Source: an uncultured Acidobacteriota bacterium (lineage in GTDB: Bacteria > Acidobacteriota > Terriglobia > Terriglobales > Acidobacteriaceae). Taken from it: 32,000 nt of DNA. The translations under genes and the position numbers were made by a program. Each line of letters opens with the position of its first letter. The stretch's first letter is position 1. The stretch covers positions 57,893 to 89,892 of the forward strand of contig CAVPEQ010000004.1 in assembly GCA_963703465.1 (NCBI GenBank), read 5' to 3'. Below the pieces are notes generated by a model. The model made no database searches and was not told the DNA's origin. It worked only from the letters and a program-made list of their open reading frames with translations. Of the stretch, positions 453 to 30,899 are shown piece after piece.

Positions 453-962
453 ATGAAGCTTGCAATTCTGATCTTGACTCTCGCATCGGCTGCCGCCGCT
501 CAATCTAAATCGCCCGTCTCTGACGCCCTGCGCCAGATGCTCCCCGGTCGCGAAAAGAACACCGTCGCCGCGTTCGAAGGAATGCCGGCCGACAAATACA
601 ACTACAAGCCCACCGCTGACCAGATGACGTTCGGCCATCTTGCAGCACACATTGTCGAAGCCAATAATTATTTTTGCGCCAATGTCGGCAACGTTCCCGA
701 ACCGAAGGTCGAGAAACTCAAAGGCACGGAAGGCAAAGACAAGCTGGTGGCCGCGATGAAAGCATCTTTCGAGTTTTGCCACACCGCACTCGAAAAAGCG
801 GACGATTCCACGATGAACGGTGAGATCAAATGGTTCGATGGCAAGCCGCATCCTCGGGTGATGGCGTTCCTCGGACTCGCCAGCAGCTGGGCCGATCACT
901 ACGGGGCAGCGGCAATGTATCTGCGCCTGAACGGCCTCCTTCCACCCACCGCAAAGAAATAA
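453..962 (+). CDS. DinB-family (DinB_2-like) protein with an N-terminal signal peptide
   Basis: ATG at 453 is preceded by AGGAGG at 443-448. The N-terminus MKLAILILTLASAAAAQ looks like a signal peptide. The sequence has a DinB-like helical-bundle character with conserved His positions (FGHLAAHIVEANNY, WADHYGAAAMYLR). The longer ORF from 357 has no RBS. Confidence 0.7.
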   Translation: MKLAILILTLASAAAAQSKSPVSDALRQMLPGREKNTVAAFEGMPADKYNYKPTADQMTFGHLAAHIVEANNYFCANVGNVPEPKVEKLKGTEGKDKLVAAMKASFEFCHTALEKADDSTMNGEIKWFDGKPHPRVMAFLGLASSWADHYGAAAMYLRLNGLLPPTAKK

Positions 963-2943: not shown

Positions 2944-3002
2944 CATGTGTTGAGCGGTCATGTATGGAGCGGGCATGTGTGGGGCGGGCGCCCTCGCCCG
3001 CC
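2944..3002 (+). repeat. Family A stem-loop repeat (A2) with a triplicated 15-nt leader
   Basis: Three 15-nt units are present: CATGTGTTGAGCGGT (2944-2958), CATGTATGGAGCGGG (2959-2973) and CATGTGTGGGGCGGG (2974-2988). The last unit runs into the stem GGCGGGCG (2983-2990), loop CCCT and stem CGCCCGCC (2995-3002). Confidence 0.9.
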
Positions 3003-3014
3003 AAGACTTCCTGA

Positions 3015-3792: not shown

Positions 3793-3818
3793 GTGTGGGG
3801 CGGGCGCCCACGCCCGCC
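3787..3818 (+). repeat. Family A stem-loop repeat (A3)
   Basis: The sequence is ATGTTGAGTGTGG followed by GGCGGGCG (3799-3806), loop CCCA and CGCCCGCC (3811-3818). It overlaps the DUF3052 stop codon at 3790-3792. Confidence 0.9.
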
Positions 3819-3986
3819 ATGAGTCGAAGAAAGAAGTCATTGCGAAGGTGAAAAAACTCTGGACCGTTCTTAGTGTTTTGCTGGCCCTGCTTATTTCGTG
3901 GTGTGTGGTCTCGTCGGATCCTTCACAAACCGACACCCTCAAAAAAATCAGGATTCAAAAGGCTGGCGACTGTCTGTGAACAAATC

Positions 3987-5153: not shown

Positions 5154-5207
5154 AATGTGTGGTGTGGTGTGGTGTGGGTGGTGTGGCGCGGGCGCCCTCG
5201 CCCGCGA
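5154..5207 (+). repeat. Family A stem-loop repeat (A4, CGCGGGCG variant) preceded by a GGTGT pentanucleotide microsatellite
   Basis: Perfect GGTGT units lie at 5161-5175 with degenerate flanks at 5157-5186. The stem CGCGGGCG (5187-5194), loop CCCT and stem CGCCCGCG (5199-5206) follow. Confidence 0.9.
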
Positions 5208-5272
5208 TTCGGCATTGATGAGAATGCGAAAGCGGAACATCACTCGAATCTCGTTCGTATCAACGCACAGTC

Positions 5273-6247
5273 ATGAATGACGGACCTCCATCACGCCGAG
5301 CTAGCTGGCTCCGCCGCATTGGCACCGTCCTCGTGATCTTATATGTCGCGGGAACAATCTTCGGAGGCATGTGGCTGGGCGAAGTCGCCACTCATCCCGG
5401 ACGTCGCCCGATTACCCCCACCGATGAAAGACAAGTCAAGCTCTACGCAACCGAAAATAAAATTGAATTTCGCGACGCCAGCATTACGGCTCGTGACGGA
5501 ATCGCGCTCCGTGGTTGGTTTTTTCGTCCTGCCCAAGCAAACGGCTCTACAGTAATTCTGCTCCACGGGGTAAGCGATAACCGGCTCGGAATGTACGGCT
5601 ATGGTCGATGGCTTCTCGCAAATCACTACAGCGTGCTTCTCCCTGACGCCCGAGCCCATGGCCTGAGCGGAGGACAGATCGCAACTTACGGGCTGTTGGA
5701 ATCTGAGGACATTCATCGCTGGGCGGATTGGGCCAGGAAAAATGAAAGACCTGGCTGCGTATTTGGATTCGGTGAGTCCATGGGGGCGGGACAGATATTG
5801 CAAGCGCTCGCGCGCGAGCCGGAATTCTGCGCTGTGGTGGCGGAATCACCGTTCGAGAGTTTTCGCGAGGTTTCATATGCGCGTTTCGGCCAGCCTTTTA
5901 ATTTAGGGCCATGGACGGGCAGAACTTTTTTCTGGCCGACTGATGAAGTCGGGTTCCTATATGTACGATTGAAATACGGATTAAATCTGGACTTGGTTTC
6001 ACCGAAAGAAGTCGTGAGAGCGTCGACAGTGCCAGTGTTGCTGATTCATGGGACGGCCGATCGCAACATTCCGTCTTACAACTCAAATGACATTCAGGCC
6101 ACAAATCCCGTGCACGCTGTTCTCTGGCTGGTACCTAAGGCAGGTCACTGCGGGGCTTACGATGTCAATCCCGAAGAATTTGGCCGCAGAGTTTTGAATT
6201 GGTTTTCTGCGCACTCGGTCTCTTCCGAAAAAACTAAAGCGTTATAA
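5273..6247 (+). CDS. Alpha/beta-fold hydrolase with an N-terminal membrane anchor
   Basis: It has an N-terminal TM segment (IGTVLVILYVAGTIFGGMWL), an HG oxyanion motif (LLHGVSDN), the nucleophile elbow GESMG, and late Asp/His candidates (HGTADRN, GHCG). It is 324 aa. Confidence 0.85.
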   Translation: MNDGPPSRRASWLRRIGTVLVILYVAGTIFGGMWLGEVATHPGRRPITPTDERQVKLYATENKIEFRDASITARDGIALRGWFFRPAQANGSTVILLHGVSDNRLGMYGYGRWLLANHYSVLLPDARAHGLSGGQIATYGLLESEDIHRWADWARKNERPGCVFGFGESMGAGQILQALAREPEFCAVVAESPFESFREVSYARFGQPFNLGPWTGRTFFWPTDEVGFLYVRLKYGLNLDLVSPKEVVRASTVPVLLIHGTADRNIPSYNSNDIQATNPVHAVLWLVPKAGHCGAYDVNPEEFGRRVLNWFSAHSVSSEKTKAL

Positions 6248-6262
6248 CCGTAGTGCACAAAT

Positions 6263-6290
6263 TCGCGGGCGAGGGCGCCCGCGCCACATT
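6263..6290 (-). repeat. Family A stem-loop repeat (A5, CGCGGGCG variant, inverted orientation)
   Basis: Positions 6263-6288 are the exact reverse complement of 5182-5207 (26 nt). The stem is 6264-6271/6276-6283 with loop AGGG. It lies between convergent stop codons and overlaps the stop of the JAMM gene. Confidence 0.9.
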
Positions 6291-6723
6291 AGACTACTTC
6301 AATCTTTTCATCTTCCAGCTTCTTGTCATTCTCATCTGAGCCCGTAAGCTCGAACGAATTGGTCAGCACTGCTTTGCCTTTTTCCACGCTGGTGATCACA
6401 TACGAACAGCTGAGCCAGTGGGCTTCGGCGAAGTCGGTCGGCGACCACTGCGCCGGATGGTCGGGGTGAGAATGATAAAACCCGATGATGTCTTCGCTAC
6501 GCTGCCGGCCCTCGCGCTGAATGCGGACCAACTCTTTCGGGTCGATGTTGTAACGGTTCTGCGGCGAGTCGGTGCGGGTATTTCCGGCGCGGGCGATCGA
6601 AGTCACAACACGGGTGCCATCGTCGTCCATGCGGCCGAGCAGGACTCCGCAGCACTCATGCGGATACGTTTCCTCGCCGTGGCGGCGAAGCGCGTCGTAG
6701 TGGGATTGGCCGAGGCGCAACAT
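6289..6723 (-). CDS. Mov34/MPN/JAMM-family metallopeptidase (Mec-like)
   Basis: It carries the JAMM motif HSHPDHPAQWSPTD (HxHx7Sx2D) and the upstream Glu (PHECCG). It is 144 aa and lies immediately downstream of the cysteine synthase. Confidence 0.85.
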   Translation of the reverse strand: MLRLGQSHYDALRRHGEETYPHECCGVLLGRMDDDGTRVVTSIARAGNTRTDSPQNRYNIDPKELVRIQREGRQRSEDIIGFYHSHPDHPAQWSPTDFAEAHWLSCSYVITSVEKGKAVLTNSFELTGSDENDKKLEDEKIEVV

Positions 6724-6804
6724 CAGCTGTTAGCTCTTAGCCTTTAGCTTTTAGCTGAACCCGATTGGGTTTGGCTAAAAGCTAAGAGCTAATGGCTAAA
6801 AGCC
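6724..6804. repeat. Family C hairpin (C1) built from GCTAA[AG][AG] heptads
   Basis: The left arm is CAGCTGTTAGCTCTTAGCCTTTAGCTTTTAGCTGAA (6724-6759). The right arm is TTGGCTAAAAGCTAAGAGCTAATGGCTAAAAGCC (6771-6804). The arms are imperfect reverse complements (about 22 of 26). The hairpin fills the whole cysM-to-JAMM intercistronic gap. Confidence 0.9.
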
Positions 6805-7806
6805 GCCTTCCGTCCAAAATCTCTCGCTCAAATATTTATCGCCGGAGTCAGGGAAGATTGTGACCATCACGGCTTCGTCGTCCTTCTTTAATTTATGTGC
6901 TACCTGCAAACATCCGGCGATGGCCGCTCCTGCCGAGATGCCCAGCAGTAGGCCTTCTTCACGCGAGGCGCGAATCGCATAAGCATAGGCGTCTTCAGTT
7001 GCTATTTCGATGTCTTCGTCGGCCAGCTTGGGATCGTATATCTTCGGCACGATGGCGCTGGCCATGTGCTTCGCGCCCTCGATGCCATGAAACGGCGAAT
7101 CCGGTTGCAGGGAAATGCAGCGTACGTTGGGGTTCAATTCTTTCAAGCGGCGCGACGTGCCCATGAAGGTTCCACTGGTGCCGAGCATGGCCACGAAGTG
7201 CGTGACCCGTCCTTCCGTTTGTTGCCAGATTTCTTCAGCTGTGCCATGGTAGTGAGCCTGCCAGTTGGCCGGGTTCGAATACTGGTCAGCGTAAAAATAT
7301 TTTTCCGGATCGCGGGCGTAGAGTTCGCGTGCCGTAGTAATGGCTCCATCCGATCCGTCAGCAGGGTCGGTGTAGATGATGTTTGCCCCGTAAGCGAATA
7401 GAATGCGCTTGCGCTCAACCGAAACATTCTCCGGCATGCACAGCGTGACCGGAAATCCATCGGCGGCGCCGATCATGGCATAGGCGATGCCGGTGTTGCC
7501 GCTGGTCGAATCGAGCAGAGTTTTGCCGACTGAAAATTTTCCGCTACGCCGTCCTTCTTTCACGATGTTGAAGGCAGCGCGATCTTTTACTGATCCACCC
7601 GGGTTGTACCACTCGGCTTTCCCGAGCAGTTGCACATTAGGCAGATCGCGGACAATGCGCCCCAGCCTCAACAAAGGCGTGTTGCCGATGCGCTCCAAGC
7701 TGCTCTGGCCGAGCTTGGAGTGGCCAATCTCAGTCTCAGGTTCGTCGATTTTGACAGTTGAAGGCCGCATGCGCTTGTGACTATCGTAATGTCGCTGAGA
7801 ATACAA
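6796..7806 (-). CDS. cysM: Cysteine synthase (PLP-dependent; CysM/CysK family); alternative start at 7770
   Basis: It has the PLP-lysine motif GGSVKDR, IGNTPLLRL, the SGNTG loop and GTSGTFMG. It is 336 aa from 7806. The adjacent JAMM gene suggests the CysO-dependent CysM type. Confidence 0.85.
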   Translation of the reverse strand: MYSQRHYDSHKRMRPSTVKIDEPETEIGHSKLGQSSLERIGNTPLLRLGRIVRDLPNVQLLGKAEWYNPGGSVKDRAAFNIVKEGRRSGKFSVGKTLLDSTSGNTGIAYAMIGAADGFPVTLCMPENVSVERKRILFAYGANIIYTDPADGSDGAITTARELYARDPEKYFYADQYSNPANWQAHYHGTAEEIWQQTEGRVTHFVAMLGTSGTFMGTSRRLKELNPNVRCISLQPDSPFHGIEGAKHMASAIVPKIYDPKLADEDIEIATEDAYAYAIRASREEGLLLGISAGAAIAGCLQVAHKLKKDDEAVMVTIFPDSGDKYLSERFWTEGGF

Positions 7807-7910
7807 ATCAGCGCTTAGTGGTTAGATTATAGAAGAGCGCTCTAGGATACAGTGGTTTGGGTATGCGTCGATTAAGTGAGCGACGCATCTAACGATTGAA
7901 GGCAAGCTTT

Positions 7911-8001
7911 TTGCTATTAGCTCTTAGCCTTTAGCTGAAGCGATTTTGTTTTGGCTAAAGGCTAAGAGCTAAAGGCTAAAAGCTAGCAGCTAGGAGCTGA
8001 A
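7911..8001. repeat. Family C hairpin (C2) with an extended heptad array on the right arm
   Basis: TTAGCTCTTAGCCTTTAGC (7917-7935) pairs perfectly (19 bp) with GCTAAAGGCTAAGAGCTAA (7954-7972). The right side then continues as heptads AGGCTAAAAGCTAGCAGCTAGGAGCTGAA to 8001. The loop resembles that of C1. Confidence 0.9.
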
Positions 8002-10605: not shown

Positions 10606-10635
10606 CCATGTGGGGACGGGCGCCCCCGCCCGTCC
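10606..10635 (+). repeat. Family A stem-loop repeat (A6, 9-bp stem variant)
   Basis: The sequence is CCATGTGG followed by GGACGGGCG (10614-10622), loop CCCC and CGCCCGTCC (10627-10635). It sits in the divergent dinG/der intergenic region. A small palindrome GTCGAGC-TAT-GCTCGAC follows at 10637-10653. Confidence 0.9.
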
Positions 10636-10672
10636 AGTCGAGCTATGCTCGACGAACTTTTGTTAACCTCAA

Positions 10673-12301
10673 ATGAATTCAATTCCTCTCATCGCCATCG
10701 TCGGCCGGCCAAATGTCGGCAAATCCACGCTGTTCAATCGTCTTGTTGGTTCCCGCCGCGCCATCGTCGGCGACGAACCCGGCATCACTCGCGACCGTTT
10801 GTACGGCGAAGGCCACTGGCGCGGATATGACTTCCGCATCGTCGACACCGGCGGCATCATTCCCGAAGACAAAGATTTCATCCCCTCAGAGATTTTCCGC
10901 CAGGCGCGGGTGGCGCTCGACGAATCTGCCGCGATCGTGATGGTCGTCGATGCCCGCACTGAATTGGCCGGCCCCGATCTCGAACTGGCGCGACTGTTGC
11001 GAAAAACCGGAAAGCCGCTATTCGTAGCGGCGAACAAAGTTGACTCTGACAAGCAGTCATCTCTCGCAGACGACCTTCATCGGCTGGGCATCCGCGAGAT
11101 CATTTCCATTTCCGCCGAGCACGGCCGCGGAGTTGATGACTTGCTGGATGCAATCCTCGCGGCGCTACCGAAAAAAACCCTCACCACAGAGGGCACAGAG
11201 AACACAGAGGGAAAAGCCACAGAGGAAAAACCTGAAGAGGGAAGAATTACAGCGGGTGCCCCGTCCTTCCCGCGTTCTGCGCGGGAGGCTGGGGATGTTG
11301 ACTCCCAATTACCCAGCACAGACGAGACAAAGGACTATCACAAATCCAAGCCCCAGTCTCAAAGGTCGACGCGTCGCCGGGAATCGAAGGTCTTGCCGAA
11401 GAGCGAAGACCGACAACCGACGACCGACGACGAAACTGAAAATGTGGAAGCTCCGGCGCCCTCGGAAGTCAGCGTTGCCATCATCGGCCATCCTAATGTC
11501 GGCAAGTCCACGCTGCTGAATCAACTTACCGGCGCTGACCGCTCGATCGTCTCCCCCGTCCCCGGCACCACGCGCGACGCGGTGGACGAAGTCGTCGAAC
11601 GCGATGGCATGAAGTTCCGTTTCATCGACACCGCGGGAATTCGCCGCAAGGGCAAGACCCACCTCATGGCCGAAAAGCTCTCAGTGGTAATGGCGCGCAA
11701 GCATCTCGAAGCCGCCGACATCGCCCTGCTGGTCATCGACGCCACCGAAGGCGTCAGCGCTCTTGACGCCGCAATCGCCGGCTATGCCCACGAGAGCGGG
11801 CGTTCCATGATCATCGTGGTGAATAAATGGGACCTGGTGACGAGCGGCGACAAAAAAGCCGTAAGCCAATCTCGGACGGCGAGAATTCAAGACGGCAAAC
11901 GCCCCGACGACCGTACCGCTTACGAGCAGCGCCTGCGTTATGCGCTGAAATTTCTGAATTACGCTCCGGTGCTTTTTGTCTCAGCCGCCAAGGGTAAGGG
12001 CACGGATAAAATCTTCCCCACGCTCGAGAAAGTCGCCGCCGAACGCCGCAAGCGCGTGACCACGGGCGAGATGAACCGCTTCCTCAAGCACGTCGACTTC
12101 GACCGCGCTTCGGTCCCAGTGCGCCAGCGCGTGAAAATTCTCTACCTGACCCAGGCTGCCGTGGCTCCCCCGACCTTCATTCTGTTCACCGACCGCCAGG
12201 TGAAGTTGCACTTCTCCTACCAGCGTTTTCTGGAAAACCAGATTAGAGCCGCATTCGGCTTCGTAGGCACACCTATCTGGATTAAAGTTCGAGCTCGCTA
12301 A
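10673..12301 (+). CDS. der: Ribosome-biogenesis GTPase Der (EngA) with an unusually long inter-domain linker
   Basis: It has two G domains (GRPNVGKST...DTGG...NKVD and GHPNVGKST...DTAG...NKWD) and a KH-like C-terminus. It is 542 aa. About 100 codons separate the two G domains. Confidence 0.95.
   Translation: MNSIPLIAIVGRPNVGKSTLFNRLVGSRRAIVGDEPGITRDRLYGEGHWRGYDFRIVDTGGIIPEDKDFIPSEIFRQARVALDESAAIVMVVDARTELAGPDLELARLLRKTGKPLFVAANKVDSDKQSSLADDLHRLGIREIISISAEHGRGVDDLLDAILAALPKKTLTTEGTENTEGKATEEKPEEGRITAGAPSFPRSAREAGDVDSQLPSTDETKDYHKSKPQSQRSTRRRESKVLPKSEDRQPTTDDETENVEAPAPSEVSVAIIGHPNVGKSTLLNQLTGADRSIVSPVPGTTRDAVDEVVERDGMKFRFIDTAGIRRKGKTHLMAEKLSVVMARKHLEAADIALLVIDATEGVSALDAAIAGYAHESGRSMIIVVNKWDLVTSGDKKAVSQSRTARIQDGKRPDDRTAYEQRLRYALKFLNYAPVLFVSAAKGKGTDKIFPTLEKVAAERRKRVTTGEMNRFLKHVDFDRASVPVRQRVKILYLTQAAVAPPTFILFTDRQVKLHFSYQRFLENQIRAAFGFVGTPIWIKVRAR
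11181..11232 (+). repeat. Family B single arm (B2) inside the der coding sequence
   Basis: CACAGAG lies at 11185-11191, 11194-11200, 11203-11209 and 11218-11224. Spacing and flanks resemble right arm 266-308. It is translated in frame as TTEGTENTEGKATEEK. Confidence 0.8.
11252..11296 (+). repeat. Family E palindromic element (E1) inside the der coding sequence
   Basis: The sequence is GCGGGTGCCCCGTCCTTCCCGCGTTCTGCGCGGGAGGCTGGGGAT. It matches the reverse complement of 17428-17470 in blocks of 11, 7 and 11 identical nt. It has an internal hairpin. Confidence 0.8.
11405..11434 (+). repeat. Family D heptad tract (D2) inside the der coding sequence
   Basis: GAAGACCGACAACCGACGACCGACGACGAA resembles the GACCGAA/GGCCGAC heptads at 30868-30899. 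It is translated as EDRQPTTDDE. Confidence 0.6.
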
Positions 12302-15335: not shown

Positions 15336-16199
15336 ATGTTGGAAAATACGCGACATGCCGGTAGCGACCGCCTGCGCCGGATCGAAGGCCGCCACAACTC
15401 GCTGCTAAAGGAATTGCGGCAAGCCTTCAGCCGAGGCGAACTAACGGCTTCCGGTGAGTGCGCCATCGAGGGATTTCGCGTCATCGAAGAAGCCGTCCGC
15501 AGCGGGCTTCGTTTCCGCGCCGTTTTCGTCAGCGAATCCGGCCAGGCCCGCGCCGCGAAACTGCTTCCGCAGATAAAGTCGCAGGTCGAAACTGTATTGA
15601 TCCCCGACAAGCTGTTTGCCAACACAGTTCCCAGCGAGGCTCCTCAGGGCGTGGCTGCTTTGGTCCATGTGAAGACCCACACTCTCGATCAGCTTATGGA
15701 GAACGCTCCGGGGCCGCTGTTGGTAGTCGCCGGCCTACAGGACCCAGGAAATTTGGGCACAATCCTGCGTTCAGCCGAGGCCTTTGGAGCTGCTGGCGTG
15801 GTCTTAGGCGAAGGCACCGTGAGTGTTTACAACAGCAAAGTGGTAAGAGCCTCGGCGGGCTCGGTTTTCCGCGTCGCCGCTCTAAAAGCCGACCTGAAAG
15901 GCGTTATTGAAAAGTTGCGCAACAGCGGTGTCAGGCTGGTTGCGACTTCATCCCACAAAGGCATCGCGCTTCCAAAGACAGATCTCAGTCGCCAGATAGC
16001 CATCTTCATCGGCAACGAAGGCGCCGGTCTCGACAAAAAGCTCATAGCAGAAATGGACGAGCTAATCATGATCCCACATTCACCACGAGTCGAATCCCTG
16101 AACGCAGGAATCGCCGCCAGCATAATCTTGTATGAGGCATCACGGCAGAAAACCATCATCACCACGGAGACACGGAGGCACGGAGAAAACGCGGGCTGA
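15336..16199 (+). CDS. TrmH/SpoU-family RNA 2'-O-methyltransferase (RlmB/TrmH group)
   Basis: It has the SpoU motifs LQDPGNLGTILRSAEAFG, IFIGNEGAGL and IPHSPRVESLNAGIAASIILYE. It is 287 aa. The last ~13 codons (TTETRRHGENAG) are encoded by repeat B3. Confidence 0.85.
   Translation: MLENTRHAGSDRLRRIEGRHNSLLKELRQAFSRGELTASGECAIEGFRVIEEAVRSGLRFRAVFVSESGQARAAKLLPQIKSQVETVLIPDKLFANTVPSEAPQGVAALVHVKTHTLDQLMENAPGPLLVVAGLQDPGNLGTILRSAEAFGAAGVVLGEGTVSVYNSKVVRASAGSVFRVAALKADLKGVIEKLRNSGVRLVATSSHKGIALPKTDLSRQIAIFIGNEGAGLDKKLIAEMDELIMIPHSPRVESLNAGIAASIILYEASRQKTIITTETRRHGENAG
16160..16191 (+). repeat. Family B arm (B3, CACGGAG variant); perfect 32-nt direct repeat of 16585-16616
   Basis: The sequence is CACCACGGAGACACGGAGGCACGGAGAAAACG, with CACGGAG units at 16163, 16171 and 16179. 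It overlaps the 3' end of the methyltransferase gene. Confidence 0.95.
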
Positions 16200-16203
16200 T
16201 TCA

Positions 16204-16578
16204 ATGTTGGTTCACGAACACCTTACGGAACAAATAATTGGTGCAGCGATCGAGGTGCATCGAGAACTCGGCCCTGGTTTACTCGAATCAGCCTATGAAC
16301 AATATTTTTGCCACGAACTGCACCTGCGAGGCTTGGCATTCCAGTGCCAGCTAGATGTGCCAGTCATGTATAAAGGCCTAAAGCTCGATTGCGGATATCG
16401 ACTGGATGTGGTCGTAGACGAAACCGTCGTGATTGAATTGAAGGCCGTCGAACAAATCTTGCCGATTCATCAGGCGCAGTTGCTCACGTACCTACGATTA
16501 AGTGGCAAGAAAGTGGGACTAATCATCAATTTCAATGTCGCAGTCCTCAAGAATGGAATTGTCAGAAGAGTTTTATAG
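16204..16578 (+). CDS. GxxExxY protein (PD-(D/E)XK nuclease-like, PDDEXK_3 / TIGR04256-type)
   Basis: From ATG at 16204 the protein reads MLVHEHLTEQIIGAAIEVHRELGPGLLESAYE... (GxxExxY = GLLESAY). It also has D...VIELK (the D..ExK-like core) and QLLTYLRLSG. It is 124 aa. The listed ORF start at 16132 lies within the upstream repeat and gene. Confidence 0.85.
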   Translation: MLVHEHLTEQIIGAAIEVHRELGPGLLESAYEQYFCHELHLRGLAFQCQLDVPVMYKGLKLDCGYRLDVVVDETVVIELKAVEQILPIHQAQLLTYLRLSGKKVGLIINFNVAVLKNGIVRRVL

Positions 16579-16584
16579 CCGAGC

Positions 16585-16703
16585 CACCACGGAGACACGG
16601 AGGCACGGAGAAAACGTTGTTTTATGATTTGGAGCGGCAAATTGCCGTATGTTCCAGGGTGTTTATAACAAGTTTTCTTCGTGCCTCCGTGTCTCCGTGG
16701 TGA
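16585..16703. repeat. Family B hairpin (B4/B5, CACGGAG variant)
   Basis: Arm 16584-16615 (CCACCACGGAGACACGGAGGCACGGAGAAAAC) and arm 16672-16703 are reverse complements at 30 of 32 positions. The 56-nt loop (16616-16671) contains the palindrome CGGCAA-A-TTGCCG. Confidence 0.95.
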
Positions 16704-16715
16704 AATGGTTTTTTC

Positions 16716-18155
16716 ATGAGTCTCTTCCAAGCGATTCCCGGCGGCAGTAACCCCGACGATCGCGGCCGTCCTCTCGCCGATCGCATGCGCCCGCGCACGC
16801 TCGACGAATACGTCGGCCAGGAGCATCTGATCGCGCCCGGCAAGCCTCTGCGCGCGCAGATCGAGCGCGATGACATCGGCTCACTCATCTTTTGGGGACC
16901 TCCCGGCACCGGCAAGACCACACTCGCAAAAATCATTGCCAGCATGGCTCGAGCTGAATTCATCGAGTTCAGCGCCGTGCTTTCCGGGATCAAAGAGATT
17001 AAGCAAGTGATGGCCGACGCCGAACGCGGACGCCAGTACGGCACTCGAACCATCGTCTTCGTCGACGAAATTCACCGCTTCAACAAAGCCCAGCAGGACG
17101 CATTCCTTCCCCACGTTGAGAAAGGCAACATTCGCCTGATCGGCGCGACCACCGAGAACCCATCGTTTGAAATTATTTCCGCGCTGCTATCCCGCAGCCG
17201 CGTGTACGTGCTCAAACCACTCACCGAAGAACAGATCGTAATTCTGCTGCGCCGCGCGCTTGAAGACGCAGAACGCGGCCTGGGCGCGATGAAATTGTCC
17301 GCCAGCGATGACGTTTTTCGCCAAATCGCAGCTTATTCCAGTGGCGACGCCCGCAGCGCCTATAACGTGCTAGAGGTCGCGGCCGCGCTGGCTACGGTCG
17401 ACACCCGACTCGGGAAAGAAAGTCAAAATACCCAGCCTCCCCGGAAAACGGGGAAGGCTGGGGCACCCGCAGAAATTTCCGGCGCACACGAGATCACCAC
17501 CGAGATCGTTCAGGATGCTCTCCAGAAGCGCGTGCTGCTTTACGACAAAGCCGGTGAAGAGCATTACAACCTGATTTCGGCGCTGCATAAGTCGGTACGC
17601 AATAGCGATCCCGACGCCTCACTCTACTGGCTGGCGCGCATGCTCGAAGCCGGCGAGGATCCGCTGTACATCGCCCGCCGCATTGTGCGAATGGCCGTCG
17701 AAGACATCGGCCTCGCCGATCCCAACGCGCTTGGGTTGTGCATGGCCGCACGCGACGCGATCGAATTCCTGGGCATGCCGGAAGGCAATCTTGCATTGGC
17801 ACAAGCTGCCGTCTATCTTGCCATTGCTCCGAAGTCGAACGCTCTATATACCGCGTATTCCGACGTTCAGCAGGATGTCGAACGCACCGCGGCCGAGCCC
17901 GTTCCGTTACATCTTCGCAACGCGCCCACCGGCCTCATGAAGAACCTCGGCTATGGTCAGGGATACCAATACGCTCACGATCTCGAAAACAAAATCGCAG
18001 ACATGCAGTGCCTGCCCGACAATCTGAAAGATCGCCGCTACTACCATCCCACGAACGAAGGCGTAGAAAAACGCATCCGCCAACGCTTGGAAGAAATCCG
18101 TTCGCAGCGATCAGCATCCCCAACCCGAGAAACTAAAACAGAATCCGGCGAATAG
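16716..18155 (+). CDS. rarA: Replication-associated recombination protein A (RarA/MgsA AAA+ ATPase)
   Basis: It has [14 protein letters not shown], Walker [10 protein letters not shown], Walker [21 protein letters not shown], and the MgsA C-terminal motifs ([36 protein letters not shown]). It is 479 aa. Confidence 0.92.
17428..17470 (-). repeat. Family E palindromic element (E2) inside the rarA coding sequence, inverted relative to E1
   Basis: The sequence is ATACCCAGCCTCCCCGGAAAACGGGGAAGGCTGGGGCACCCGC. The internal hairpin is CCCAGCCTCCCCG / CGGGGAAGGCTGGG. The reverse complement aligns to 11252-11296. It is translated as [15 protein letters not shown]. Confidence 0.8.
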
Positions 18156-19925: not shown

Positions 19926-21194
19926 CTAACCCTTGCTTGGATCTAATTTCTGCTTGAACATTCGCAGAGCAAGTTTTCGAACGGTATCGGAAACTTCTTT
20001 ATTGGCTGACAGATTCTTCAGGTCTTGGACCAGGAGATTTTTCATGAGCCCCAGACCGACATCCAGCGGCGTACGCGGATTGGCTACCAGGTTGCGAACC
20101 ACGATGTAATTTTTTGCAAATCGCCGCTTCATCGGGATCGCGCGCAACAAAGCTTCCAATACGTTCTTCTGGTTGGCAAATTTTTCCACTTCGCCATCCG
20201 TTATCTTTGGCGAATCCAGCACCGCAAGCGCAACCACTTTTGTCCCGTCGCGCACCAGAATCGACCGCTCTTCTTTTGTTCCCTTCATCGCCAGCTGGAT
20301 TCGCCCCTTCACGTCGAGCTTGGCAATTTTCTGCAGCACACTGCCACGTTGGTCGTCTTCCGGATTGGTCAGCTTCTTGGGCGGCATCTTCACCGTGGGT
20401 GACGTTCTGACTGGAGCCGCGACCGCCGAGGCGGCCGCGGCCAAGGCCTTTGGCTCTGCGACGCTGACTTCTTCCTGAATTCCGCCAATCGGCTGAAAGG
20501 GCTTATTGGCCTCGGCCGCGATTTCACTGGCGTGCTCGGTCATGAATGCGATTATTACCTTCTCGGTTTCAGGATCCGACTCAGCCGTCCCGGGATCTGG
20601 AACTACCTCGAACTCTGCTGGCGCCGGCATGGCTGGGACAGCTTCCAGCGCAGGCGGCGGTTGCACTGGGATGTCGGCTTCGGGTTCACGCTCCGGCTTC
20701 GTCTCGACCGCAGCTGCCGCCGATTTGCCCGTGATCAGCTCTTGCACGTGTACGGATTGCACTCCGCTGAGCCGGTTATTTGCGGCCAATTCCTGCAAGA
20801 CCTGTTGTGACTTCTGTATTCGTGGGCTGGCCAGCATTGCGTCAATCCACTCGCCTTTCAAGGTGGACCCAATTTTTCCAATCTTCTCCAAGGTGACCGC
20901 AGAATTTTCCAGCAACAGCGGAAACAAAACCGGGCGGAGATTTTTTGGCGACAACCAATAATCCAGCACTTCTTTCGCCGTGCCTGGGTTCGAGGCTATT
21001 GCCTTGGCCGAGTTCTCGTCCCAGCCCGCGAGGGTGATGCGCGAGGTCTCGCCGAATATTTTGTTGTTGTCGGCCAGAAAAACCAGAATCTCGACCATCT
21101 CTTCGGCCGACACTTCCAGCGCGCCCTTGGCCGCAGCCATCATCTGGTTCGATGGCAATGCGCATCTGCGAACTAATTCCAGTAAACGGGCCAT
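19926..21194 (-). CDS. Hypothetical protein with helical-repeat N- and C-terminal regions and a central Pro/Ala/Glu-rich linker
   Basis: The start at ATG 21194 (MARLLELVRR...) avoids overlapping prfB. The C-terminus (...ILVRDGTKVVALAVLDSPKITDGEVEKFA...LVANPRTPLDV...) resembles HEAT/LRV-like repeats. I cannot assign a family. Confidence 0.6.
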   Translation of the reverse strand: MARLLELVRRCALPSNQMMAAAKGALEVSAEEMVEILVFLADNNKIFGETSRITLAGWDENSAKAIASNPGTAKEVLDYWLSPKNLRPVLFPLLLENSAVTLEKIGKIGSTLKGEWIDAMLASPRIQKSQQVLQELAANNRLSGVQSVHVQELITGKSAAAAVETKPEREPEADIPVQPPPALEAVPAMPAPAEFEVVPDPGTAESDPETEKVIIAFMTEHASEIAAEANKPFQPIGGIQEEVSVAEPKALAAAASAVAAPVRTSPTVKMPPKKLTNPEDDQRGSVLQKIAKLDVKGRIQLAMKGTKEERSILVRDGTKVVALAVLDSPKITDGEVEKFANQKNVLEALLRAIPMKRRFAKNYIVVRNLVANPRTPLDVGLGLMKNLLVQDLKNLSANKEVSDTVRKLALRMFKQKLDPSKG

Positions 21195-21285
21195 AGATTT
21201 CGGATACGGAGTTGTACCCTGTAGGGTCTCGCACCTGCACTGCCGTTTCCAGCATTTTCGAGGGAAGGTCAGGTTACCGAAGGCA

Positions 21286-22405
21286 CTATGCGGACGAATC
21301 GCCAGAGGTCGTTCCATCGCGTCGCATACGCAGATAAGCATGAATAAACGGCTGCAAATCACCATCTATCACGCGATCTACGTCGCCGACCTCGGTCTTG
21401 GTGCGGTGGTCTTTAATAAGCCGGTAAGGCTGCAGCACATAAGACCGAATCTGTGATCCGAAATCGATATCCAGCTTTGAGTCTTCGATCTTACGCGTGG
21501 CTTCGCGCTTCTTCTCCATTTCAAATTCGTAAAGCTTGGAGCGCAGCATGCTCATGGCGCGATCTTTGTTCTTGTGCTGCGAACGCTCGTTCTGGCAAGC
21601 GGCCACCAATCCGGTAGGAATATGCGTAATTCGCACCGCAGAATCCGTGGTGTTCACGTGCTGTCCGCCTTTGCCGCTCGACCGGTAAGTATCGATGCGC
21701 AGGTCATCGGGCTTAATGTTCACCTCGATCGACTCGTCAATCTCCGGTGAGACAAAAACGCTGGCAAAGGATGTATGGCGCCGCTTTGCCTGATCAAACG
21801 GCGATATTCGAACTAATCGATGCACGCCGATTTCGCTGGTCAGCAGGCCGAACGCGTATTCGCCATTCACGCCGAAGGTCGTCGATTTAATTCCCGCTTC
21901 TTCCCCCGGCTGATAGTCGTAGAGGACCGTCTGAAATCCCTGGCGCTCGGCCCAGCGCAGGTACATGCGCATCAGCATCTCCGCCCAGTCCTGCGATTCG
22001 GTTCCTCCCGCGCCGGGATGGATGGTGACGATGGCATTACGGGCGTCGTTCTCGCCCGACAACAGCGTCTCAGTCTCAAGCCGTTCCACGCGCGCGCGCA
22101 GTGAATCGATGTCCCGGCGCAGATCGGCTTCCACGCTTTCCCCCTCGCGAGCCAGATCGAAATAAGCAGCGATGTCGTCGGTGCGGCGCTGCAGGTCAGC
22201 CTCGGTGGAGAGCATGCCCTCCAGGCGCTTCTTTTCGCGCATCACCTGCTGAGATTTTTGCGGGTTCGACCACAGGTTCGGGTCGGAGGCTTGCTTATCG
22301 ATTTCTGCTAGCTGCGGACGAAGTTTGCCGGCGTCAAAGGTACTCCCGAAGTTCGCGGACTTTTTGTTGCAATGCCGAGTATTCGTGTTCCAATTCCTGA
22401 ATCAT
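21286..22405 (-). CDS. prfB: Peptide chain release factor 2; join(22405..22337, 22335..21286) through a programmed +1 frameshift
   Basis: ORF0 is MIQELEHEYSALQQKVRELREYL followed by TGA. The +1 frame continues DAGKLRPQLAEIDKQASDPNLW... and carries SPF (ISPFD) and GGQ (GKGGQHVN). Confidence 0.95.
22333..22347 (-). promoter_or_regulatory. prfB: prfB programmed +1 frameshift site: SD-like GGGAG, 3-nt spacer, CTT TGA C
   Basis: The minus strand reads GGGAG (22347-22343), TAC, CTT (22339-22337), TGA (22336-22334), C. This is the same architecture as the E. coli prfB site (AGGGGG TAT CTT TGA C). Confidence 0.9.
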
Positions 22406-29359: not shown

Positions 29360-30841
29360 CTAAGCGCCCTGCACGAAGGCTTCGCCGGTACCCAATATTT
29401 CCTGCACCAGCTCCGGCGATGCCGCTTCCGCATAAACCCGCAATAACGGCTCCGTGCCCGAAGCGCGAAACAGGATCCATGCCTCAGCCCCATTCCCGTT
29501 GGTCGGTGCATCGAGAAAGAACTTAATCCCGTCGAGTGTTTCTTTCTTGATCACGCCATATTTCCCGAGGCGCTTTGTGGATTCCGACTTCGCCCGTTCG
29601 ATGGCGCCGAACTTAATATCGTCAGCGATGTGAAGATCGCGGCGTCCATAAAAATGCGGCCCGTATTCCTTCTGTAACGAAGCCACCAGCGCGCCCAGCG
29701 GCTTCTTCTCTTCCGCCAGCACATTCGCCAGCAGCAGGGAATTCAGAATACCGTCGCGCTCCGGAAGATACCGCGAATATCCGATCCCGCCCGACTCTTC
29801 GCCGCCAATCACGATCTCCCGCTCCATCATCAAATCGGCAATGTGTTTGAATCCGATCGGGCACTCGTTCAACTTGCGCCCATATTTACCTGCGATGCGG
29901 TCGAGCATGCGCGTGGTATTGAACGCGCGCACCACCTCGCCCGGCCACTGCTTGCGCCGCAACACCCACTCCAGCAGCACAGAAAATATTTTGTGTGAAT
30001 CCACAAAGCTGCCGTCTTCCGCGACTGCGCCAATTCGATCGGCATCGCCGTCGGTCGCAAAACCCGCATGGCAATGTTCGCGCACCACCGTCTCCTGCAG
30101 CATGCGCACATGCGGCTCGATCGGCTCAGGATTAATCTCCGGGAACAGCGGATTGACTTCCTGCCGTATCGCCACAAAATCGATCCCGTGTTCTTTAAAA
30201 ATTTGCGCCAGAATCCCGCGCCCCGAACCGTACATGGAATCCACAGCAAATTTAAATTTCGCTTTCGCAATCAAATCCAGATCAGCAAACTTGCAAACCG
30301 CGCGAATGTACGCCGGCTTCAGATCAACCTCCTCGATCTTCGCCTGCTTGCCTTTCGGAGCCGTTCCCGCGGCCACCTCCTGCTCGATCACTTTCATGAT
30401 CGCCGGGGTCGCCGATCCGCCAAACTTCGCCTTGAATTTGACGCCATTCCAATTCCACGGATTGTGGCTTGAAGTGATGACCACGCCCCCGGCAGCGCCC
30501 ATGTTTTTCACCGCAAACGAAATCGCCGGAGTCGGAGAGTAATCGCTGGCCAGCTTAATCGGAATTCCTGCGGCAGCCAATACCTCCGCCGCAGCCCGCG
30601 CGAATTGCGGCGATCCAAACCGCGTGTCATAGCCCACGATCAACCCGCGAGACGGATCTTCATGCTTCAGCACATACGCCGCGATCGCCCCCGCAACCCG
30701 GCGCACATTTTCAAACGTGAAATCGTCGGCGATGATCGCGCGCCAACCGTCAGTGCCGAACTTGATGGGAGCCATCGGTCGCCGGTCATCGGTCGTCGGC
30801 AATGGCGGATTGATGTTTGCGGTTTTAGTTTCTGTGACCAT
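29360..30841 (-). CDS. Phosphoglucomutase/phosphomannomutase-family (alpha-D-phosphohexomutase) enzyme; start ambiguous (30841, 30775 or 30865)
   Basis: It has FGTDGWR, the active-site TSSHNPWNWNG, the metal loop TDGDADR, and GGEESGG. ATG at 30841 follows GAGGATAGGGAG. ATG at 30775 (MAPIKFGTDGWR) fits the usual N-terminus of the family but has no SD. Confidence 0.9.
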   Translation of the reverse strand: MVTETKTANINPPLPTTDDRRPMAPIKFGTDGWRAIIADDFTFENVRRVAGAIAAYVLKHEDPSRGLIVGYDTRFGSPQFARAAAEVLAAAGIPIKLASDYSPTPAISFAVKNMGAAGGVVITSSHNPWNWNGVKFKAKFGGSATPAIMKVIEQEVAAGTAPKGKQAKIEEVDLKPAYIRAVCKFADLDLIAKAKFKFAVDSMYGSGRGILAQIFKEHGIDFVAIRQEVNPLFPEINPEPIEPHVRMLQETVVREHCHAGFATDGDADRIGAVAEDGSFVDSHKIFSVLLEWVLRRKQWPGEVVRAFNTTRMLDRIAGKYGRKLNECPIGFKHIADLMMEREIVIGGEESGGIGYSRYLPERDGILNSLLLANVLAEEKKPLGALVASLQKEYGPHFYGRRDLHIADDIKFGAIERAKSESTKRLGKYGVIKKETLDGIKFFLDAPTNGNGAEAWILFRASGTEPLLRVYAEAASPELVQEILGTGEAFVQGA

Positions 30842-30899
30842 CAGCTCCCTATCCTCTTCGCGCACTGGCCGACGACCGAAGACCGAAGGCCGACGACCC
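30774..30899. repeat. Family D hairpin (D1) built from GACCGA[AC] / [AG]TCGGTC heptads
   Basis: Arm 30774-30800 is ATCGGTC GCCGGTC ATCGGTC GTCGGC. Arm 30868-30899 is GCCGAC GACCGAA GACCGAA GGCCGAC GACCC. The arms are reverse complementary at about 22 of 27 positions. The loop is 68 nt. Confidence 0.8.

Follow-up and report, generated by a model that had tools for sequence, protein, structure and literature searches.

REP-type hairpin elements inserted in frame in der and rarA of an uncultured Acidobacteriota bacterium, probable members of a RAYT-spread repeat family

The der and rarA elements and their host genes

A stretch of 32,000 nt from contig CAVPEQ010000004.1 of an uncultured Acidobacteriota bacterium (assembly GCA_963703465.1), analysed as a whole and called the window below, contains the genes der and rarA, each with a short G+C-rich palindromic element inserted in frame. 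The two elements were identified as copies of a dispersed repeat family, probably of the repetitive extragenic palindromic (REP) type that is spread by REP-associated tyrosine transposases (RAYTs). The two genes and their elements are located as follows.

10673..12301, + strand: der (engA), host gene of 542 aa, with Pfam domains MMR_HSR1 (twice) and KH_dom-like
11253..11305, + strand: REP-type hairpin element, sense, in the inter-domain linker of der, encoding AGAPSFPRSAREAGDVDS
16716..18155, + strand: rarA (mgsA), host gene of 479 aa, with Pfam domains AAA, AAA_assoc_2 and MgsA_C
17419..17469, − strand: REP-type hairpin element in the part of rarA that codes for the AAA lid domain, antisense to the gene, with an intact tail TATTTTGACTT

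Along the der copy, the foot GGGTG is followed by an imperfect hairpin, CCCCGTCCTTCCCGCG / CGCGGGAGGCTGGGG, in which a single T is bulged, and by the tail ATGTTGACT. Two exact matches of the pattern GCGGGTGCCCCNNCCTTCCC were found in the window, against 0.04 expected from shuffles. An independent family profile was built from 107 metagenomic copies only, the rows of the window and of the loci L002, L008 and L009 being left out. It matched the window at 11253-11305 (+) with E = 9.3e-12 and at 17419-17469 (−) with E = 2.5e-10; no further match below E = 4 was found in the window. Both copies fold into a hairpin, the der copy with −28.7 kcal/mol (z = −2.2) and the rarA copy with −29.6 kcal/mol (z = −4.9), and both are stop-free in the frame used.

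The initial annotation had described a ~45-nt palindromic element, in frame and in opposite orientations, in two essential genes, at 11252-11296 (+) and 17428-17470 (−). These sequences and the peptides quoted with them were correct on re-reading, and the placement in frame and in opposite orientations agrees with the sequences and with the Pfam domains of the hosts. The profile matches and the folds uphold the presence of two copies; the length had to be revised to a unit of ~51-53 nt that includes foot, hairpin and tail. Pairwise alignment of the copies showed a likeness that runs past the original coordinates into a shared 3' tail, AT(G/T)TTGACT. The identical blocks of 11, 7 and 11 nt are real, but they are mostly family consensus and are not evidence of recent copying from gene to gene. 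As Der is essential in model bacteria and RarA/MgsA is not, the phrase ‘two essential genes’ was too wide for rarA.

Both window copies carry the rarer variant GGCTGGG, which breaks one base pair. In the der copy this variant arose within the lineage of the window, because the related locus L009 has GGGTGGG. The AATT likeness found upstream of both copies lies outside the family consensus.

In Der, the linker between the two GTPase domains measures 102 aa. The alignment with Bacillus subtilis Der (2HJG) covers only residues 5-163 and 266-542, and the insert is absent from the B. subtilis protein. For the AAA_assoc_2 domain of RarA, 104 residues were aligned on 79 profile positions, with the element located in this lid domain; Escherichia coli MgsA (PDB 3PVS) aligns to residues 14-230 and 253-471 and lacks the insert segment. 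The AlphaFold model of RarA was poor, with a mean predicted local distance difference test score (pLDDT) of 47.8 and values below 50 for residues 231-255 between better-modelled helices, and was not relied on.

The repeat family and its transposase

On a genome contig collection, the strict pattern of the initial annotation gave seven matches. Six were apparent chance matches from unrelated phyla and the only related one was L002, an Acidobacteriaceae metagenome-assembled genome (MAG). Metagenomes were scanned with the degenerate pattern GTGCCCCNNCCTTCN{8,30}GAGGSTGGG, which matched at least 120 stretches. The retrieved DNA contained at least 139 pattern copies, and nhmmer located at least 181 copies in 124 loci covering 772 kb. 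The metagenome counts refer to pooled soil-metagenome loci and not to single genomes. The search for further copies that the initial annotation had proposed, made here in metagenomes, brought out a dispersed family with intergenic as well as coding copies; it is large and belongs to soil Terriglobales (Acidobacteriota).

The family consensus is cGGGTGCCCCAYCCTTCTCGCG-TTYTTT-GCGAGAGGGTGGGG-ATTTTGACTT, also written GGGTGCCCCAYCCTTCTCGCG-TTYTTT-GCGAGAGGGTGGGG-ATTTTGACTT, and positions outside the ~51 nt carry no information. Its hairpin has one bulged T, and sub-families differ by compensatory changes in the stem. Pairing was found in 94.9% of cells, against 51-64% with a slid partner. Covariation was observed at columns free of the search pattern, with UA 60 / CG 20 at columns 22-41 and CG 73 / UG 31 / GC 6 at columns 13-46.

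Most copies are intergenic (90 of the 139 pattern copies). Another 43 of the 139 lie inside called open reading frames (ORFs), 17 of them sense and 26 antisense, and 39 of the 181 nhmmer copies lie inside high-scoring ORFs, so that the in-gene share of the sampled copies is ~22-30%. The intragenic copies occupy all six reading frames. Because most copies are intergenic and the intragenic ones use every frame, protein-level constraint is excluded as the cause of the nucleotide identity, as had been argued initially from the two window copies.

Host genes confirmed with Pfam encode AlaS, S9 peptidase, TilS, ArgC, Dus, a family-2 glycosyltransferase, MnmG, NDH-2, MutS2, agmatine deiminase, QueA, a YggS-like protein and a rhomboid protease. 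In TilS, MnmG and QueA the Pfam domain is split by the element into two matched stretches. The alanyl-tRNA synthetase gene is a host in six loci with up to four copies per gene, and a MutS2 gene contains two copies in opposite orientation. One alaS fragment (L125, 3-1922) has four copies, including an adjacent reverse-forward pair at 636-685 (−) and 700-749 (+) that together would make one larger palindrome within the gene.

The ~51-nt unit is G+C-rich and stop-free in five of the six frames, and the encoded peptides are rich in Pro, Gly, Ser, Lys and Arg. Open frames as an adaptation were considered and set aside: five of six open frames in 51 nt at this G+C content have a probability of ~0.2 by a rough hand calculation, which is not significant alone.

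A candidate transposase was found next to copies of the family. In L054, the ORF 600-1268 matches NCBIfam NF047646 (REP-associated tyrosine transposase) with 108 bits, at a cut-off of 80, as well as Pfam Y1_Tnp, and is flanked by inverted element copies at 500-544 (+) and 1213-1257 (−). Three more loci, L106, L123 and L024 (which is identical with L078), have this architecture of a RAYT gene between inverted copies, making four loci in total. The RAYT gene of L024 is frameshifted. The motifs HVH/HIH, WQ and YLHRNP are present in the RAYTs of L024, L106 and L123, and at every flanked locus the GGGTGCCCC end of the element faces away from the RAYT gene. Because inverted copies flank a RAYT gene at four independent metagenomic loci, the family is assigned to the REP/RAYT (REPtron) systems.

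Inside the L054 RAYT protein, the segment SRKPRDKGGAPTV resembles the peptide that the element encodes in reverse frame, and the C-terminus of the protein extends into the downstream flanking copy (PTLSPKDGEKDGAP). From these sequences, it seems that copies of the repeat have become part of the transposase gene.

Alleles in relatives and origin of the inserts

Homologues of RarA and Der were compared among MAGs of Terriglobales and Acidobacteriaceae. The insert site of RarA is hypervariable among orthologues of 81-100% identity. Most orthologues carry a version of the window insert peptide or PHPPQRTGKGGAPS; the whole segment is missing in three (450 aa, 86-89% identical, including P0069 of L008), the 12-residue core alone is missing in two, and a tandem double copy is present in one. 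In syntenic DNA, L009 (RarA 94% identical) has both copies in the same arrangement as the window. The rarA site of L008 is empty, with 90 nt missing.

The Der orthologues surveyed (n = 120) show a similar range of states. The forward copy (GAPSFPRSVREGGDVD) occurs in close relatives, and a reverse copy (SKSPPSRKERGKDGAPS) was found in many orthologues of 72-87% identity; L008 and L131 have the element in this opposite orientation in the der linker. One orthologue (L130) has no element and another has two copies. DNA alignment of forward and reverse copies showed homologous flanks with insertion points 15-28 nt apart. Because the insertion points differ, a simple inversion in situ is disfavoured, if not strictly excluded, and the opposite orientations more likely reflect independent insertions, or excision followed by re-insertion, into a permissive linker.

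Partial losses were also found. In rarA of L132 (P0060), exactly 36 nt between ACCC microhomologies are gone and a remnant of the tail is kept. In der of the same locus the hairpin is gone, with tail and foot remnants kept, and in der of L133 the tail and one hairpin arm are kept and ~30 nt of the rest are lost. Such losses are the mark that slippage of replication at a hairpin in the DNA leaves when selection on the reading frame acts as a filter. In L132 (GCA_050746025.1, JBOGLH010000103.1; der 228-1847, rarA 6064-7467) the hairpin was deleted from both copies, with tail and foot left behind in each, which could be a coincidence or the sign of a lineage that actively removes hairpins.

Both window copies are old and have come down by vertical inheritance, because orthologous copies are present in relatives with only 81-94% protein identity. 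The initial annotation had taken the two segments for a mobile or recombining element tolerated within coding sequence and had proposed an orthologue alignment to reveal lineage-specific insertions. Both proposals hold: the sites are empty or filled among relatives, neither E. coli MgsA nor B. subtilis Der has the insert, and the element belongs to a dispersed family of which inverted copies flank a RAYT gene.

We consider it likely that the der and rarA segments are copies of a RAYT-spread REP-type family, inserted in frame long ago and since inherited vertically. This explanation is built on computed results: family membership, the covarying hairpin, the RAYT association, the occurrence of copies within many genes and in every frame, and the polymorphism in presence and orientation. 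As for the chemistry of transposition, which we infer from REP/RAYT and IS200/IS605 biochemistry, the RAYT, an HUH/Y1 enzyme, would act in trans on single-stranded-DNA hairpins and so spread the family. It would probably recognise the conserved foot and the start of the stem, GGGTGCCCC. Selection would purge most insertions into genes, leaving mostly intergenic survivors, and insertions that preserve the frame in surface loops or inter-domain linkers would be tolerated and then inherited vertically. Such tolerance is expected of a short unit that is stop-free in five of six frames and whose peptides are hydrophilic and rich in Pro and Gly. The der and rarA copies would accordingly be translated, as part of the Der linker and as a loop of the RarA lid domain, presumably as neutral inserts. 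Later, copies could be duplicated, replaced or stripped of the hairpin alone by slippage between the basal ACCC microhomologies.

Several points weigh against this explanation. No RAYT gene was found among the ORFs of the 32-kb window, the RAYT loci being related metagenomic contigs, and the window copies may now be immobile relics. Transposition is deduced indirectly, from allele states; neither a target-site duplication nor a conserved target sequence was found at the family copies. The conserved 5' foot is GGGTG and not GTAG or CGTC, which places the family outside the GTAG/CGTC superfamilies, yet within the broader class of RAYT-associated repeats. As to the sample, it was ascertained by a pattern that demands conserved outer stems, genes in the metagenomic loci were called with our own crude codon-usage caller (~20 hosts were checked with Pfam), and orthologous copies were counted repeatedly (AlaS six times and S9 peptidase five times, for example), so that the intragenic fraction is approximate.

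The alternative that survives best, though we regard it as improbable, is that the repeats are structural signals in RNA or DNA selected by the host (terminators, mRNA-stabilising hairpins or pause sites at domain boundaries) and kept for their function, with the der and rarA copies acting on mRNA. The consensus is indeed terminator-like, a G+C-rich hairpin followed by ATTTTGA. The intergenic copies are biased to the 3' ends of genes, 28 lying between convergent and eight between divergent genes, and the intragenic hairpins are as well kept as the others (−28.1 vs −28.2 kcal/mol, a comparison biased by the search pattern). A sense terminator inside der would do harm, however, and the T-run occurs at similar rates in sense intragenic copies (31%), in antisense ones (40%) and outside strongly supported ORFs (39%); its lack of depletion in the sense-strand copies tells against a terminator role. 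Rfam gave no match at gathering score in the window, and none at permissive thresholds at the canonical copies in L054, L065, L073 and L074. The RAYT-flanking architecture at four loci and the empty and oppositely oriented alleles point to mobility instead. For the intergenic copies, the terminator-like hairpin followed by a T-run may still have a secondary role at the RNA level. Terminator avoidance, in the form of T-run loss from sense intragenic copies, was considered on the same rates and rejected.

It is very unlikely that the element is a MITE (a miniature transposable element with inverted repeats) of a conventional DDE-type insertion sequence, moved via terminal inverted repeats with target-site duplications rather than as a RAYT substrate. 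It shares small size, palindromic form, dispersed distribution and a non-coding character with the MITEs reviewed in PMC10969869, but its ~51 nt fall below the usual 70-300 bp and conserved flanking direct repeats are absent. No DDE transposase was seen adjoining any copy, whereas RAYT genes adjoin copies repeatedly.

The idea that recombination has exchanged a selected peptide module between proteins, for instance a flexible linker motif, is effectively refuted. The encoded peptides are hydrophilic, Pro/Gly-rich and sited in linkers or loops, as such a module would be, but the window copies are oppositely oriented and encode unrelated peptides, the family uses all six frames with ~70% of its copies outside ORFs, and conservation tracks base pairing and not codons. 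Chance likeness of two G+C-rich segments, for which only their small size speaks, is refuted by two pattern matches where shuffles give 0.04 and by the E values of the independent profile (1e-10 to 1e-11).

Besides the hairpin element, the der linker contains two other repeats in frame.

11183..11230, + strand: CACAGAG-unit repeat (TTEGTENTEGKATEE), separate from the hairpin element; repeat family D10, inverted pair I13
11392..11425, + strand: GACCGA-type repeat (PKSEDRQPTTDD); repeat family D14, inverted pair I9

A long palindrome of CACAGAG units lies at 200-310 of the window, and one of its arms is closely similar to the linker start TTEGTENTEGKATEE, which is kept in most Der orthologues. 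CACAGAG/CACGGAG doublets were counted 13 times in ten loci and not once in shuffles. The GACCGA-type repeat is 82% identical to an intergenic copy at 30865-30898, which has an inverted partner at 30775-30807, and the PTTDD-like motifs that it encodes recur in Der orthologues. Judged from these matches, the der linker seems to be a mosaic of at least three different dispersed repeats in frame.

More tentatively, and with considerable doubt on our side, the hairpin family could be unusually compatible with coding and could settle, in both orientations and again and again, in the same permissive linkers of housekeeping proteins that are essential. Much of the ~100-residue Der linker of this lineage would then stem from it and from at least two other dispersed repeat families, and RAYT-driven repeats would supply Terriglobales with new protein loops and linkers regularly and not just by occasional accident.

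Further repeats of the window and comparison with known systems

A second palindromic repeat family, GTGTGGGGCGGGCGCCCNCGCCCGCC, is present in the window at 985-1014, 2977-3006, 3793-3822, 5181-5210, 6263-6288 and 10609-10638, all six copies lying between ORFs. A perfect 26-nt inverted pair (5182-5207 / 6263-6288) brackets an alpha/beta-hydrolase gene at 5273-6247. The sequence GGGCGGGCGCCC was found nine times in five related loci, against about once in shuffles.

Two 79-nt A+T-rich palindromes at 6725-6803 and 7905-7998, composed of GCTAAAAGC / GCTAAGAGC units and mutually 82% identical, flank a gene for a pyridoxal phosphate (PLP)-dependent enzyme at 6796-7806 (−). There were 19 occurrences of GCTAANAGCTAA in nine related loci, where shuffles gave 0-2.

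Between the SpoU methylase gene and rarA, in the region 16132-16703, lies a gene for a PDDEXK_3 (‘GxxExxY’-type) nuclease (~16195-16578, Pfam E = 3e-41). Copies of the 32-nt repeat CACCACGGAGACACGGAGGCACGGAGAAAACG bracket it, two of them direct (16160 and 16585) and one inverted (16672). Because the gene is present in L009 and absent at the same position in L008, L130, L132 and L133, it looks like a small mobile insertion. For the ORF 19926-21365 (−), of 479 aa, Pfam gave no match at E ≤ 0.001 and the crude caller found low support in codon usage; it is syntenic in L008 and L009 as a gene of 424-428 aa without Pfam matches.

REP/REPIN-RAYT systems have been described in E. coli, Pseudomonas and Stenotrophomonas (Bertels and Rainey 2011, PMC3116915; Di Nocera et al. 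2013, PMC3733652). The acidobacterial family resembles them in its short imperfect palindrome with a conserved single-stranded foot, in its dispersed copies, abundant across the pooled soil metagenomes and mostly downstream of genes, and in the RAYT gene between inverted copies (REPtron) with HUH, WQ and YxHxNP motifs. It differs in its foot, GGGTG in place of GTAG or CGTC, in the 3' tail ATTTTGACTT found in most copies, in the prevalence of single copies over doublets and in a far higher in-gene share. Of the features of a REPtron, then, the hairpin, the RAYT between inverted copies and the extragenic 3'-end bias are present and the GTAG/CGTC tag is absent.

Di Nocera et al. (2013, PMC3733652) describe in-frame intragenic REPs from Opitutus terrae, Xanthomonas, Thauera and others, and the hosts of the GTAG/CGTC REPs, which occur in several phyla, are enriched in genes related to DNA repair and to tRNA/RNA (PMC3733652). 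As in those cases, the elements described here lie in frame in real genes, many of them for DNA repair or tRNA/RNA functions, at the same site in orthologues, with dimers and double insertions. They belong to another sequence family and phylum, and the presence of both orientations in one linker and of remnants with only the hairpin deleted sets them apart.

Rickettsia palindromic elements (RPEs; Ogata et al. 2000, as summarised in PMC10969869 and PMC3733652) measure ~100-150 bp. From these summaries, the likeness is that both are selfish palindromic repeats which lie in frame within unrelated housekeeping genes, are tolerated at the protein surface and are inherited vertically. With an element of ~51 nt and another host phylum, the present family is set apart from RPEs by description and is not filed among them. 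The accounts consulted mention no RAYT partner for RPEs.

A comparison within the phylum is with the acidobacterial TIRYT tyrosine transposases and their flanking TIR repeats, reported for Terriglobus saanensis, Koribacter versatilis, Acidobacterium capsulatum and Granulicella mallensis in PMC3733652. According to that paper, RAYT-like Y1 transposases are located between inverted repeats here too, and at least the repeat of K. versatilis ORF1552 belongs to a family of repeated DNA. The reported shared motif, GGGGWSAS, does not fit the element (GGGGCACC); the comparison being made on this motif, the family may still be identical with TIR repeats. Nothing relevant to the sequence motif of the family was found in the literature and supplements searched. 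The family is apparently undescribed, with the TIRYT repeats compared by their reported motif only, while in-frame insertion as such was already known from REPs and RPEs.

Two lineage-specific inserts in conserved proteins are hereby explained without a new function. An abundant REP/RAYT family in a major soil phylum will yield spurious ORFs and puzzling low-complexity inserts in annotations of Acidobacteriota. It also provides a large natural data set on selfish hairpin DNA inside proteins, with empty, filled, inverted, duplicated and hairpin-deleted alleles of one site. In-frame insertion, known from RPEs and other REPs, is thus extended to free-living soil bacteria, with a candidate transposase in hand.

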